Of a stretch of 64,000 nt of DNA, positions 7,551 to 13,553 are shown in pieces. The DNA lies in NCBI GenBank assembly GCA_965215265.1, contig OZ244048.1:3104001-3168000 (forward strand). The letters run 5' to 3'. Every line of letters begins with the position of its first letter. Within the stretch, counting starts at the first letter, position 1. Made by a program: the position numbers and the translations under genes. The notes beneath the pieces are model-generated. The model did no database searches. It was not told the origin of the DNA and saw only the letters and a program-made list of their open reading frames with translations. Source of the DNA: Candidatus Poribacteria bacterium. Lineage in GTDB: Bacteria; Poribacteria; WGA-4E; WGA-3G.

Positions 7551-7925
7551 ATGCCAAAATTTAATCCGGATTTCTGGGAGGTTTCGGTTCCACCCGAATA
7601 TTTCGACCGGTTCACTAATGAAGATCATCTCTGGTACCAGCCTCCTAACAGCAAATACGCGCGGACGTACCGCGCGAAACGTCGGAAAGTTCTCAAACAG
7701 ATCCGTCAAATCATCGCGAAAGATCTGACAGCCCGCCAAGCGGAATGTATCCAACTCTACTTCTACGAAGGCAAAACACAAGAAGAGATTGGTAAACTTC
7801 TGGGTATATCGCGCCGCGTTGTCAGTCAACACCTTTTTGGTGTCACGCGTAACGGAAAGCAGATTGGTGGTGCAATTAATAAAATTCGCAAGATGTGCCG
7901 CAAGCAGGGGATTGAATTTCCGTAG
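7551..7925 (+). CDS. Stand-alone sigma-70 region 4 / HTH protein
   Basis: LTARQAECIQLYFYEGKTQEEIGKLLGISRRVVSQHL; no region 2 visible. Confidence 0.8.
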   Translation: MPKFNPDFWEVSVPPEYFDRFTNEDHLWYQPPNSKYARTYRAKRRKVLKQIRQIIAKDLTARQAECIQLYFYEGKTQEEIGKLLGISRRVVSQHLFGVTRNGKQIGGAINKIRKMCRKQGIEFP

Positions 7926-8063
7926 ACGCTGTACCGGAAACTATCTATTAGCCTTGCCTTATAGGTGTAAATTAAGAAGAGAGGTAACCTTAAGAGTTAC
8001 CTCTCAACAATCCTCAATTAAAGCATTAATTCAAATTTTGTTTTATATTTCTGGATATTTTAA

Positions 8064-9692
8064 ATGACAACATTACCAAACAAAATCAACCTCAATCTGG
8101 ACGGTGAGACAGAAATCTCAGTCAAAGGTATCATCGCACCGATTGAGTATTCCTCATATAACTTTCATGTAGAGTGGGAGGCATTGGCAAGTCTACGCGT
8201 CGCTGAGCCAGAAAAACAGCATCCCGTCTCAATTTTCTGTGACTTTCTTCCTAAGGAAGCTGTTTCTGTCGGTACGCCTTGGGAGATTGAGCACGCGGGT
8301 GCTCTGGAGCTGCTGAAGCAACTTCATCCCCGTCCATCTCTGGATATGCGTGCGGATCTGCAGTACCGTAAAGACGAATCTCAAGGACTGTGGGCATGCC
8401 TCCGCGCCTACGACGATGAATTCGCCGATGTTGTGTTCCGTATTCATGCGCAATTTGACCTAAAGGATGGTTGGTTCACGCCTTCCCAGTTTACAGGACA
8501 TCTTGTTATTGATAGAATAAAAAGATCGGTTGCCTTCTTTCGGATGTCCGTTCCTGAAGGCACCATAAACTTTGATGTTAAATGGAAAGCCCCAGAGGGT
8601 TTTGAGACCGAAACATGGATTACCGATAGCGGCTTCTGCCCGCAAATGGAACTCCGCGCCGGAATAGAAAACGCTGTGCAAAACACTAAATTCGTTGAAT
8701 CCATTACACAAGAAGAAGTGGAGCACAAATTGATTCTCTGCTTCTATAAATCGCAGCAAATTAACTGGGTGTCACTTGAAGAAGCGTTGGAGATGGCTCC
8801 TGCACAACAGAAACCGATCCACGCTATCTCAATAGATGGCCCGCTCGCTGATGAATCCTGCTGAGGGAGTGGGAAAAACTTGAGGGCAGGTGTCCTCTCT
8901 AATGATCGAATCATTGAATTCTTGAACGATAATTTCATCAATACCTGGGGAGGCAATGCTGATTTAGGACGTATCCATAGTCTGCGGGAACCGATTGCCA
9001 AAAGACGCGAGCGTGAAGGTAAGACGTTTGACACAACACACCCCTTGGCACAAGCAATTATCAAGGGGTGGAAAACCGGATCAAAAAAAGAGTCATCGGT
9101 GGATTGCTTGGTTATATCGCCAGAATTTGAACTGATGGGCAGACAACCTGTTAGTGAACTCCGCGAAGATATTAGGTATAATAGACTCCTAAGGGATGAG
9201 TATTATCTAACATTTTTCAAGGAAGCTTTGGCGGGGAAACAACCTGGTTTGGGGAACGTTATCCTCACGACTGAACATCCTTCGCAAGAGGTATTGGACA
9301 TTTTTCGGACACCAACCGTGGGGTATCAAGACTACACTGTTGTCGTGATTGATACCACAGCCTTTGAAAATGGAGGCACGTTAACTATTAACATTGAAAT
9401 CGGCAGGGAAGAGGGTGAAGCGGCGTTCTATCTGTTTGATGGCGACACCGAACTCTCCACAGAAGAAGAAAAAACGAAAGATATGCTCACTTGGACATGG
9501 GGTGAACCCGGTGACACCCGCCAAATCATGCATCGTTTTGACCGAGGTCAATTTTTTAAATTAGGTGCTACTGGACATTGGCCGAAAGACGAACCGTGTA
9601 TCAACGCTTTTCAAGCACGAATTTCTGTAGCAGAGAATCAGCAAGTGGAATCTTTAGAAAGAGGGGGTCCTAAATCGGATGAGAACACCTGA
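8064..9692 (+). CDS. Selenoprotein N (SELENON)-like selenoprotein, 542 aa, Sec at codon 267 (TGA 8862-8864)
   Basis: ORFs 8064..8864 and 8880..9692 are in the same frame and separated only by TGA. Readthrough gives LADESC-U-GSGKNLRAGVL, matching the SELENON redox motif SCUGSG. Other SelN-like motifs: FRIHAQF, WFTPSQFTGHL, PQMEL, FLNDNFINTW. Confidence 0.85.
8865..8897 (+). promoter_or_regulatory. Putative bacterial SECIS element
   Basis: Hairpin GAGGGC-AGGT-GTCCTC (8882-8897); the apical loop G lies 25 nt after the UGA. Confidence 0.65.
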
Positions 9693-9713: not shown

Positions 9714-9896
9714 CGTGTCCTGAAGGACACGGTTTGCCCACTGAGACAAGCTTACCGAACCCCGACCCCTGCCATCTATAGATTGGCAAGATAAGGTAAT
9801 CTTTGCTATCCTCGAGGATAGCAAAGAAAACGAAGTTGAGGGTAAAAGGTAAGTTTACGAAACCTTGCAGGTTTCGCAAACTACCTCTCCCTCAAC
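9714..9896. repeat. Cluster of palindromes (REP/MITE-like)
   Basis: CGTGTCC-TGAA-GGACACG (9714-9731); perfect 28-bp palindrome TCTTTGCTATCCTCGAGGATAGCAAAGA (9800-9827); long imperfect hairpin GTTGAGGG...CCCTCAAC (9835-9896). Confidence 0.8.
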
Positions 9897-9946
9897 CGAA
9901 CTTGCCAACCCACTGGGCAGCCTTTATTGGGCTCCTGTAGACAAAA

Positions 9947-10168
9947 AATATTCAGGTCGGGAACGCAGCCCCTGACGGTTCATTTGATCTCTTTGACAGC
10001 AACACTGAACTTCCGACAGAAGGCATACCTGAGGCGGCAGTCGCCTCAGCGTGGGGAATCAAATCCGGTAAAACTGAAAAAATCAAACACCGTTTTGAGC
10101 ATAGTGAGGTTTTTAAACTTGGGGCTACCGGCGACGGGTTTCGCCAGAAGAAATCTGTAAATGCCTGG
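9947..10168 (+). pseudogene. Remnant of a second copy of the C-terminal domain of the SelN-like protein
   Basis: A start-less frame reads NIQVG..FDLFDSNTELPTE..AWG..IKHRFEHSEVFKLGATG..VNAW, versus NIEIG..FYLFDGDTELSTE..TWG..IMHRFDRGQFFKLGATG..INAF in the upstream gene. Confidence 0.75.
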
Positions 10169-10379
10169 ATTCTCTTTATTGAGGCAGAGATTTCATTGTT
10201 TTGCTTGAGACAGGCGGCTGTGTGAACGTGATACCGAGTTGATAAGAGACGATGGTAAACAAATCACTGCACCTTGTTTCGCACTCTGTTCTAATATCTT
10301 ATCAACCGTTTTAAACCTCTTGGCAAAGTCATGATGCGGGACTCAAATCAGGACTTCATTTCGTGGTGCCTAATTTCAA

Positions 10380-12346: not shown

Positions 12347-13507
12347 CTATATTCTATACAACGTTCGCATTTGTTGGATAACCTGGGGTAATTTTGCGAT
12401 AACGTCGTCAATTTGGGTTTCTGTCGTATCTCTGCCGAGTGAAAATCTAACGGTGCCTTGTGCTAACCTCGGAGGTAACCGAAGCGCCGCAAGCACATGC
12501 GATGGTTCCATTGAGCCAGAGGTGCACGCCGAACCTGTTGACACACAGATGCCCTCCATGTCTAACCGCAAGATAAGGCTTTCTCCTTCAACGTTTTCAA
12601 AGGAGACATTGAGAGTCCCGGGGGCACAATGTTCAGGGTGTCCATTATAGTGAATATTTTTAATGTAGGTATCAAGTCCATGGCGTAGTCGCTGCCCTAA
12701 CTTATTAAGATGTGCGGCGTAAGTGGCTTGCTCTTTTTTAGCGAGCTCTGCTGCAACCCCAAGGCCGACAATAGCCGGTACATTCTCCGATCCGGCGCGT
12801 CGATTGCGTTCATGCGAACCTCCGTGGACGAGGTTTGCTAACCGGGTGCCTCGTCGGATGTAAAGTACGCCGATGCCTTTCGGTGCGTAAATTTTATGTC
12901 CTGATAACGATAGGAGGTTAATACCCAACGCCTGAACATTAATTTGCAACTTACCAACTGACTGCACTGCATCCGTGTGCATCGGTATTTCGTATTGCTT
13001 GGCGATTTCACATATCTCTTCGATCGGTTGGATGGTGCCGTTCTCGTTGTTGACGTGCATGATAGTTATGAGTACGGTTTCTTCACGGATAGCATCCAGT
13101 AGTTGTTCCAGGCGAATCCGGCCGTACCGGTCTACAGGTAAGTACGTCACTTCAAAGCCACGTTTCTCAAGATATTGACATGTATGCAGGACCGCGTGAT
13201 GTTCGACAGAAGAGGTGATGATATGGTTGCCATTTCCTCGGTTCTTTTCCAATTCAGTCAGTCCTTTGATGGCGTGATTATCCGCTTCGGTTCCGCTTGC
13301 GGTGAAAACAATTTCGCTGGGGCTTTTGGCACTGATGAGCTCTGCCACCTGTTCACGTGCGATGTCAATAGCATTCCGTGCCTCGCGCCCGTAAGCATGA
13401 ATACTGGATCCGTTCCCAAATGCGTTTGTCATATACGGCATCATTGCATCCAGTACTTCTGGTCGAATTGGTGTTGTTGCATTGTAATCCAAATAGATGC
13501 GTTGCAT
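12347..13507 (-). CDS. iscS: Cysteine desulfurase (IscS/NifS group I)
   Basis: IYLDYNATTP, SGHKIYAPKG (PLP lysine), STGSACTSG; start probably MQRIY. Confidence 0.9.
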   Translation of the reverse strand: MQRIYLDYNATTPIRPEVLDAMMPYMTNAFGNGSSIHAYGREARNAIDIAREQVAELISAKSPSEIVFTASGTEADNHAIKGLTELEKNRGNGNHIITSSVEHHAVLHTCQYLEKRGFEVTYLPVDRYGRIRLEQLLDAIREETVLITIMHVNNENGTIQPIEEICEIAKQYEIPMHTDAVQSVGKLQINVQALGINLLSLSGHKIYAPKGIGVLYIRRGTRLANLVHGGSHERNRRAGSENVPAIVGLGVAAELAKKEQATYAAHLNKLGQRLRHGLDTYIKNIHYNGHPEHCAPGTLNVSFENVEGESLILRLDMEGICVSTGSACTSGSMEPSHVLAALRLPPRLAQGTVRFSLGRDTTETQIDDVIAKLPQVIQQMRTLYRI

Positions 13508-13553
13508 AGTTGTGTCCAGGTTGTTGAAGCGGTGCATTGCCAGCGAATCGTGC

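Follow-up and report, generated by a model that had tools for sequence, protein, structure and literature searches.

When two bacterial open reading frames (ORFs) share one frame and are parted by a lone TGA, the question arises if they are two genes, the remains of one, or a single gene in which UGA is read as selenocysteine (Sec, U). This question is posed by positions 8064-9692 of a stretch of 64,000 nucleotides from a Candidatus Poribacteria bacterium (contig OZ244048.1; the whole stretch is called the window here), where an original prediction, made from the letters alone, had seen a bacterial homolog of selenoprotein N (SelN; SELENON or SEPN1 in humans). SELENON is an endoplasmic reticulum (ER) membrane protein and is mutated in SEPN1-related myopathies. 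We conclude, with a probability of about 0.9, that 8064-9692 is a single gene for a genuine selenoprotein and SelN homolog.

The two ORFs, 8064-8864 (266 aa) and 8880-9692 (270 aa, counted from TTG 8880), do lie in the same frame, and its sole interruption is the TGA at 8862-8864, with five more codons before the TTG. The first ORF ends with ...GPLADESC directly before the TGA; with U at this codon the product has 542 aa and reads ...DESC-U-GSGKNLRAGVLSNDRIIEFLNDNFINTW... (...DESCUGSGK...). Since a TAA abuts ATG 8064, the gene has neither a longer N-terminus nor a signal peptide, and orthologs (73-82% identity) align from residue 1 and likewise start without a signal peptide. Public sequencing runs agree at the critical codon. 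Run X2, perhaps where this DNA came from, contains the full stretch in one contig with 0 differences; in a second study (X5), contigs spanning 8064-8793 and 8790-9241 likewise show 0 differences. As the latter piece includes the TGA, rather than the TGC or TGG that would have spoken for an error, the codon is not an assembly slip. A sponge metagenome contig (X6, 8181-9174) has 27 differences, none at 8862-8864 among the differences listed.

The in-frame UGA is flanked on both sides by conserved protein sequence, DESC-TGA-G[ST]GKxLRA being kept among paralogs of 41-100% identity. DESC-TGA-G[ST]GK is found in every copy in the genome from which the window was taken (a single contig of 4.83 Mb): three that are intact, at 100, 56 and 41% identity, and a decayed one. 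A search pattern that permitted any residue at the site returned TGA at all 65 motif sites of 33 loci; over 63 loci there were 92 distinct sites, 88 with TGA, two with GGA and two with GGC, and in a scan of the phylum an in-frame TGA was found in 150 of 150 among the matches listed. The glycine codons are confined to one signal-peptide-bearing orthogroup (P0004 type; L060-L069), in which close orthologs alternate between TGA and GGA/GGC (Gly, not Cys) and retain the hairpin described below; its search table has five members with TGA and five without, and the motif pattern located seven of the ten sites. Tryptophan occurs at the site in two database relatives, P0040 and P0051, with a degraded motif. 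In P0037 the cysteine is lost as well, and in P0051 it is replaced by glycine. These Gly- and Trp-type copies, few and derived, may be pseudo-enzymes (P0004 orthogroup, P0040, P0051, P0037).

Database proteins point the same way. Among the 80 that cover at least 85% of a profile of the N-terminal domain (N-domain), 69 have as their very last residue the Cys that precedes the site, which is what gene callers produce at a TGA. A protein ending there is an indirect sign of TGA, and the codon was TGA wherever the DNA was examined. The rest comprise four with Cys-Cys, two with Trp, one with Ala, one broken eukaryotic gene model, the window protein itself and two that end elsewhere. The Cys-form bacterial homologs P0139, P0142, P0162 and P0168 are continuous ORFs. 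The original prediction had asked if homologs have TGA or Cys at the site, and they do, apart from the few copies named above.

The genome is also equipped to decode UGA as Sec, as the original prediction required of a real selenoprotein gene. All four components score over their curated cut-offs: selA with 588.6 bits, selB with 336.5 bits, selD with 359.6 bits, and tRNA-Sec (selC), with anticodon TCA and directly downstream of selB, with 80 bits (cut-off 47). A single in-frame TGA also occurs within selD, which brings the Sec-encoding genes of this genome to at least four. The TGA of selD (G000:C1:4044300-4045226, L019) stands in the context ...VKCAG-U-ASK...; after it one sees by eye what may be a 5-bp hairpin, its loop containing GGU, which is absent from the minimum free energy fold.

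Of the alternatives, the one that survives best takes the TGA as a true stop, leaving either a 266-aa protein and a 270-aa product restarted at TTG 8880 or a pseudogene. Gene callers divide the family in just this way throughout the databases, and the GGGAG after the TGA resembles a Shine-Dalgarno site about 10 nt before TTG 8880. We nevertheless consider a split or dead gene very improbable: the supposed start codon is CTG in 42 of the 88 TGA sites, the five codons between TGA and TTG (GSGKx) show conservation at the protein level and agree with the motif of SelN and of the Cys forms, and the latter run through without interruption. TGA at this frequency over deep divergence, in a genome with the full Sec machinery, also differs from real decay, for which the fourth copy (G000:C1:3291292-3291745; L026/L027/L030), broken by several stops, is the example.

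If the gene is one selenoprotein gene, a decoding signal should stand close to the UGA. Bacterial selenocysteine insertion sequence (SECIS) elements lie within a certain distance range of the UGA and have a G in the loop. The predicted hairpin GAGGGC-AGGT-GTCCTC is found at such a distance, its loop beginning 23 nt past the UGA. In an alignment of the 88 distinct TGA sites (A1, no gaps), standard pairs fill 95.5% of 528 cells, and slid registers all pair worse (44-82%). Two of the pairs show changes on both sides, that is, compensatory ones: pair 21-36 (GC 84, AU 1, CG 1, UA 1, unpaired 1) and pair 24-33 (GC 60, AU 7, GU 5, other 16). By eye, many of the 16 other cells are Gly to Arg or Val to Glu variants in which the stem is kept by a one-base shift. 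The covariation score is 0.136 versus 0.095 in shuffles and was reached by none of 500.

Synonymous positions are near-fixed within the stem-loop and free in its flanks. In the stem, the first Leu is TTG in 42 and CTG in 42 sites, thus G-ending in 84/88 (CTG plus TTG make up 33% of Leu codons genome-wide); Arg is AGG in 76 and AGA in 12 sites (AGR, genome-wide 19%); the second Leu is CTC in 85/88 (28%). The remaining hairpin codons behave alike: Ala is GCA at 81 of 88 sites (genome-wide 35%), GGT accounts for 61 of the 62 Gly codons (24%) and Val is GTC at 58 of 88 sites (29%). Two flanking codons vary freely, namely Ser two codons past the TGA (AGC 44, AGT 39) and Ile seventeen codons past it (ATT 49, ATC 25, ATA 11). 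Retention of the rare AGR codons in 88/88 sites argues for selection on the RNA, and we conclude that selection acts on the RNA structure at 8882-8897, which is likely the site bound by SelB. That this hairpin goes beyond chance follows from the conservation of the TGA, the frozen synonymous positions and the compensatory pairs, not from folding energy. A second conserved element, GGGAG, stands directly after the UGA (window 8865-8870; A1 columns 4-8) and is Shine-Dalgarno-like; the Gly codon following the UGA is GGG in 73 of 82 Gly codons versus 22% in the genome. It may act by slowing the ribosome at the UGA, or it may be part of the Sec signal.

The same arrangement is found in a second phylum. 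A metagenome-assembled genome (MAG) of the Planctomycetota has DDESC-TGA-GSGKGLRAGPLS and, equally far downstream, the hairpin GAGAGCG-GGUC-CGCUCUC; this hairpin together with TGA is present in four of the five distinct Planctomycetota sites read, and the third paralog of the window genome bears the same GGUC-loop hairpin. At the Planctomycetota loci L092, L094, L095 and L098 the motif pattern search gave no site.

The read-through product is homologous to animal SelN. A search against 1.84 billion representatives matched the chordate protein P0247 (588 aa) at E 4.9e-21, and a protein atlas places P0247 in its 'selenoprotein N' cluster of Chordata (score 0.98). BLASTP between the two gives 112 bits; the alignment (250 columns, 32% identity) sets out in the N-domain and extends past the Sec site as far as LNxxFI(N/S)TW; the gene model of P0247 lacks the two residues at the Sec position. 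The motifs FRIHAQF, WFTPSQFTGHL and PQMEL, on which the original prediction had leaned, are present upstream of the TGA in the 542-aa product, and P0247 shows matching ones. The prediction was also right in describing a protein without the N-terminal transmembrane anchor and EF-hand: the 542-aa product has no Pfam match at E <= 1 and starts directly at the N-domain, about P0247 residue 180-260, and the alignment begins at P0247 residue 259. Two more sequences of animal type, P0256 and P0270, also have N-termini that are EF-hand-like. No Pfam model was found for P0247 itself, which has only sub-threshold EF-hand matches.

Scans of the 542-aa product against Pfam, NCBIfam and PDB sequences gave no match, and its architecture was read from models of homologs. 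The model of paralog P0004 (53% identical; predicted local distance difference test, pLDDT, 84.2) shows three parts. The middle part (about residues 268-415) resembles DsbH (PDB 2ju5) with Z 12.8, a root mean square deviation of 3.9 and 125 aligned residues, followed by the C-terminal domain of the DsbD family (3f9u, Z 12.2), AGR3 (3ph9, Z 11.7) and the UAS domains of UBXD7 (2dlx, Z 10.1) and FAF1 (2ec4, Z 9.0). The Cys and the Sec equivalent of P0004 are residues 308 and 309, between a strand (294-299) and a helix (310-317), at the place where thioredoxins have CxxC. In the model, the middle domain is thus a thioredoxin fold with C-U at the CxxC position. The C-terminal part of P0004 (429-557) is a beta-sandwich similar to PliG (Z 12.0), GOLD (Z 10.4) and the collagen-binding domain of clostridial ColH (Z 10.0); absent from animal SelN, it corresponds to the extra C-terminal domain that had been predicted. 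The N-domain, folded alone for P0124 (51 sequences), reached pLDDT 91.1, and its model is without a convincing solved relative (Foldseek best E 0.069; VIA best Z 5.1, with one of 48,161 chains reaching 5).

Several points weigh against the reading as a Sec-decoding SelN homolog. The presence of selenium in the protein itself is deduced from the gene. RNA support consists of a single contig from one metatranscriptome library (X18, 8476-9002) that is about 91% alike, so at most a relative may be transcribed. The sites counted above belong to related paralogs and orthologs, and the counts overstate independence; part of the hairpin conservation could stem from recent ancestry. Folding energies are weak: the 70-nt fold has z = -1.31, with 23 of 200 shuffles folding equally well, and against synonymous recodings with genome-wide codon usage the mean z is -1.14, with 10 of 60 sequences reaching <=0.05 and the window's own copy standing at 0.063. 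All four copies with a Gly codon have kept the hairpin, and for this reason its presence alone is no marker of Sec decoding. The SECIS criteria, and the comparison with E. coli fdhF, come from general background and not from a SECIS program. Finally, the models are of homologs (P0004, and P0124 with 64% identity in the N-domain), not of the window protein.

A further alternative is a selenium-free read-through, in which a near-cognate tRNA reads the UGA as Trp, Cys or Gly and the hairpin is a generic read-through stimulator or a by-product of the LRAGVL codons; relatives with TGG (Trp) or GGA/GGC (Gly) at the site, the hairpin retained in the Gly forms and the weak energy tests all lean that way. 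Such a read-through is nonetheless exceedingly improbable, given that the site aligns with the Sec of animal SelN, with the bacterial Cys forms and with the redox site of the thioredoxin fold, that the Trp forms have lost the neighbouring motif (one of them the Cys, too) and look degenerate, that the AGR codons argue for selection on the RNA, and that the genome maintains selA, selB, selC and selD.

For the relation to animal SelN, a quick maximum-likelihood tree of the N-domain was calculated (81 rows, unrooted, three eukaryotes only; P0210 and P0246, which do not end in the domain, were dropped, P0001 was replaced by the first ORF of the window, and P0247 and P0270 were added as partial sequences). 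The three animal rows form one clade (Shimodaira-Hasegawa-like approximate likelihood ratio test, SH-aLRT, 99) on a long branch, with a path of at least 3 substitutions per site from any bacterial row. They fall inside or beside a group of proteins ending ...DDQSC with bacterial lipoprotein-type leaders; a profile of 21 such relatives matched three proteins only. The clade of the window copy is a distant one that it shares with Poribacteria-type relatives, and close by stand the Cys forms P0142 and P0139. As the animal rows lie far from this clade, there is no sign of a recent transfer between sponge and symbiont, and the idea of a host-symbiont gene transfer put forward in the original prediction finds no support here. 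That the gene was recently acquired from the sponge host is scarcely credible: its nearest named homologs come from MAGs of Candidatus Poribacteria, sponge metagenome runs contain a near-identical stretch and SelN is recorded in the sponge Amphimedon (in the available text of PMC3473315), but the animal clade is remote, the bacterial copies have no EF-hand or transmembrane region, 525 representatives match at E <= 0.001 in the 1.84-billion-protein library (301 at E <= 1e-10), and the family, with its bacterial hairpin, also occurs in Planctomycetota.

Taking the gene as a selenoprotein gene, we propose the following mechanism. As the ribosome reaches the UGA, SelB carrying Sec-tRNA would bind the hairpin 8882-8897 and Sec267 would be inserted, with decoding by the genome's own SelA/SelB/SelD/tRNA-Sec system. 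The adjacent Cys266 and Sec267 would then cycle between a selenol/thiol and a selenenylsulfide, in the way that the C-terminal G-C-U-G of thioredoxin reductase forms and resolves one. The thioredoxin scaffold would thereby bear a centre that is strongly reducing or competent for exchange. Its targets may be oxidised cysteines of client proteins, in the form of disulfides or sulfenic acids, which the pair would reduce or exchange; the N-domain and the beta-sandwich would bind and choose the clients. This proposal is derived from the fold, the position of the motif and the redox role that the available text of PMC7474598 reports for animal SelN, an ER-localised redox partner of SERCA2. Having no signal peptide, the window copy probably acts in the cytoplasm.

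The gene had been called hidden. It is not isolated, being one of about 900 matches in the phylum scan (150 listed, 753 more), often tandem neighbours, and a sequence cluster with many Poribacteria, described below, already bears a SelN name. The family is present in 117 of 151 sampled genomes of the phylum: 97/99 in family f1, 9/10 in f2, 10/26 in f3 and 0/15 in six further families. In Planctomycetota it is sporadic (9 of 301 sampled genomes), and a further scan of genome contigs gave one locus only. The tandem-array copies, the window copy included, start MKTF/MTTL...NKI.LNLD and have no signal peptide; other paralogs, and most of the distant relatives, carry signal or lipoprotein leaders. 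The number of C-terminal domains in orthologs is zero, one or two, the protein continuing beyond Sec for about 124-129, 255-294 or 399-412 residues; P0002 carries two, the window copy one. Some tandem copies may be fused into two-Sec proteins. In the database protein P0115 (541 aa), a single ORF joins the part after Sec of one SelN-like gene directly to the part before Sec of the following one. The third paralog (G000:C1:1711914-1712627, L024) sits in an 843-aa open frame and hence belongs to a much larger protein. P0072, a C-terminal fragment of the family, is publicly named 'BrnA antitoxin family protein', probably a misannotation, as the similar fragment P0002 remains sub-threshold in Pfam (17.2 bits versus a cut-off of 26.1).

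Features of the selenoprotein locus (window positions)
Feature	Positions	Strand	Basis or remark
Whole selenoprotein gene	8064..9692	+	542 codons plus TGA stop 9690-9692; TAA directly 5' of ATG
N-terminal beta-rich domain shared with animal SelN (limits approximate)	8079..8708	+	BLASTP to P0247 covers aa 83-296
Thioredoxin-like domain, DsbH/UAS type (limits approximate)	8709..9173	+	mapped from the P0004 model, offset 42 residues; C-U dyad at start of helix 1
Redox dyad: Cys266 codon TGC and predicted Sec267 codon TGA	8859..8864	+	TGA in 88/92 distinct related sites; Cys-Cys in P0139, P0142, P0162, P0168
Putative bacterial SECIS hairpin, 6-bp stem GAGGGC/GUCCUC, loop AGGU (8888-8891)	8882..8897	+	within codons Leu-Arg-Ala-Gly-Val-Leu; 95.5% of cells paired, codons frozen
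C-terminal beta-sandwich (aa about 398-526), absent from animal SelN	9255..9641	+	domain-only database matches align to aa 398-526
Decayed remnant of a second C-terminal domain	9935..10171	+	38% identity to aa 439-517, one TAG inside (G000:C1:3113935-3114171)

Around the selenoprotein gene a few further features were seen. Directly upstream lies a gene for a small helix-turn-helix (HTH) protein of the Sigma70_r4/LuxR type (7551-7925, plus strand, E 6.4e-13), followed at 7979-8005 by an 11-bp palindromic terminator-like hairpin. The distant Cys-form homolog P0139 begins with a long additional stretch which, by eye, resembles an extracytoplasmic function sigma factor. A hairpin 3' of the stop codon (9714-9731), visible by eye, was not flagged in a terminator/promoter scan of the window. 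At 12347-13537 (minus strand), 2.7 kb downstream of the selenoprotein gene, a class-V aminotransferase is encoded (Aminotran_5, E 2.2e-90). The Aminotran_5 family includes cysteine desulfurases and selenocysteine lyases.

What is already known of such proteins is soon told. Nothing SelN-like is among the 119 prokaryotic selenoprotein families in Table 1 of a 2026 review (PMC13188914). As families in common with eukaryotes, the text of the review gives SelD, GPX, deiodinase-like, SELENOW-like and MsrA proteins, to which the table adds SelO-like ones. A full-text literature search, with supplements outside its reach, found no paper on bacterial SelN or on SelN in Poribacteria. Text matches to 'selenoprotein n' in BSepDB proved to be 'selenoprotein name'. 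A published structure of a Poribacteria SelN was not found either: there was no PDB match, and words beginning with 'bacteri' or 'prokaryot' do not occur in the available text of PMC7474598. An atlas cluster is automatically labelled 'Putative selenoprotein n 1 (Fragment)' and has Candidatus Poribacteria as its commonest phylum. Automatic annotation, though not the printed literature, has thus noticed the likeness to SelN. Among eukaryotes, SELENON has also been reported from a few algae (PMC7539508, available text).

Tentatively, and with more doubt than confidence, we combine these observations into a wider picture. SelN would then be no animal invention and rather a eukaryotic offshoot of old, mostly Sec-using bacterial oxidoreductases of envelope and cytoplasm, in which the Sec of the C-U pair was kept across the domain jump and the decoding signal was rebuilt. 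In Poribacteria the family would dominate the selenoproteome, with at least ten Sec genes per genome in tandem arrays, many of the copies with one or two PliG/collagen-binding-like beta-sandwich domains; this pattern would suggest a symbiosis-related, selenium-hungry redox system with diverse clients.

A bacterial SelN would matter in several ways. SELENON is a human disease gene (muscle) whose catalytic chemistry is poorly understood, and according to the available text of PMC7474598 no three-dimensional structure of it has been solved. A soluble homolog without an anchor, and with natural Cys forms, could serve for structural work on SelN, including the conserved N-domain, and for enzymology of the C-U site. 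The SelN-like family would extend the inventory of bacterial selenoproteins, and would rank among the largest per-genome expansions of one selenoprotein family, with a compact SECIS conserved in two phyla. The origin of animal SelN becomes testable. Hundreds of family genes are now annotated split, as two 'hypothetical proteins'.

How does the system compare with known ones? With the E. coli fdhF-type SECIS the hairpin shares a small stem-loop shortly 3' of the UGA and G-G-U in the apical loop (GGUC in the variant of the Planctomycetota and the third paralog), whereas the stem is only 6-7 bp long and shows no evident bulged U. The DsbH, Thioredoxin_7, UAS and AGR3 folds are alike in structure, as the Z scores above show, but identity to the middle domain is only 12-16%, the active-site motif differs and there is no match to solved chains at the sequence level. 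Animal SELENON has in common with the bacterial protein a homologous core that takes in both the N-domain and the thioredoxin-like domain, the S-C-U-G dyad at the same aligned place and the motifs FRIHAxF, WFxPxQFTGH, PQMEL and LNxxFxxTW. The bacterial protein differs in lacking the N-terminal transmembrane segment and EF-hand and, in the window copy, a signal peptide, in its additional beta-sandwich, and in a Sec signal that is a hairpin within the coding sequence just after the UGA, the eukaryotic SECIS lying in the 3' untranslated region. Poribacteria also have several copies of the gene, in tandem, against one in animals (PMC3473315, available text). With the known bacterial selenoproteins of thioredoxin fold (Sec-Trx, Sec-Grx, DsbA-like and thiol:disulfide interchange proteins; PMC13188914) it shares a UGA-encoded Sec at the redox position, Cys homologs, a SECIS-type hairpin directly downstream and identification by comparative genomics. 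Unlike these, which are listed among the 119 families, the SelN-like protein has adjacent C-U instead of UxxC or CxxU, a far higher copy number per genome and, in addition, a large N-domain that lacks a solved relative.

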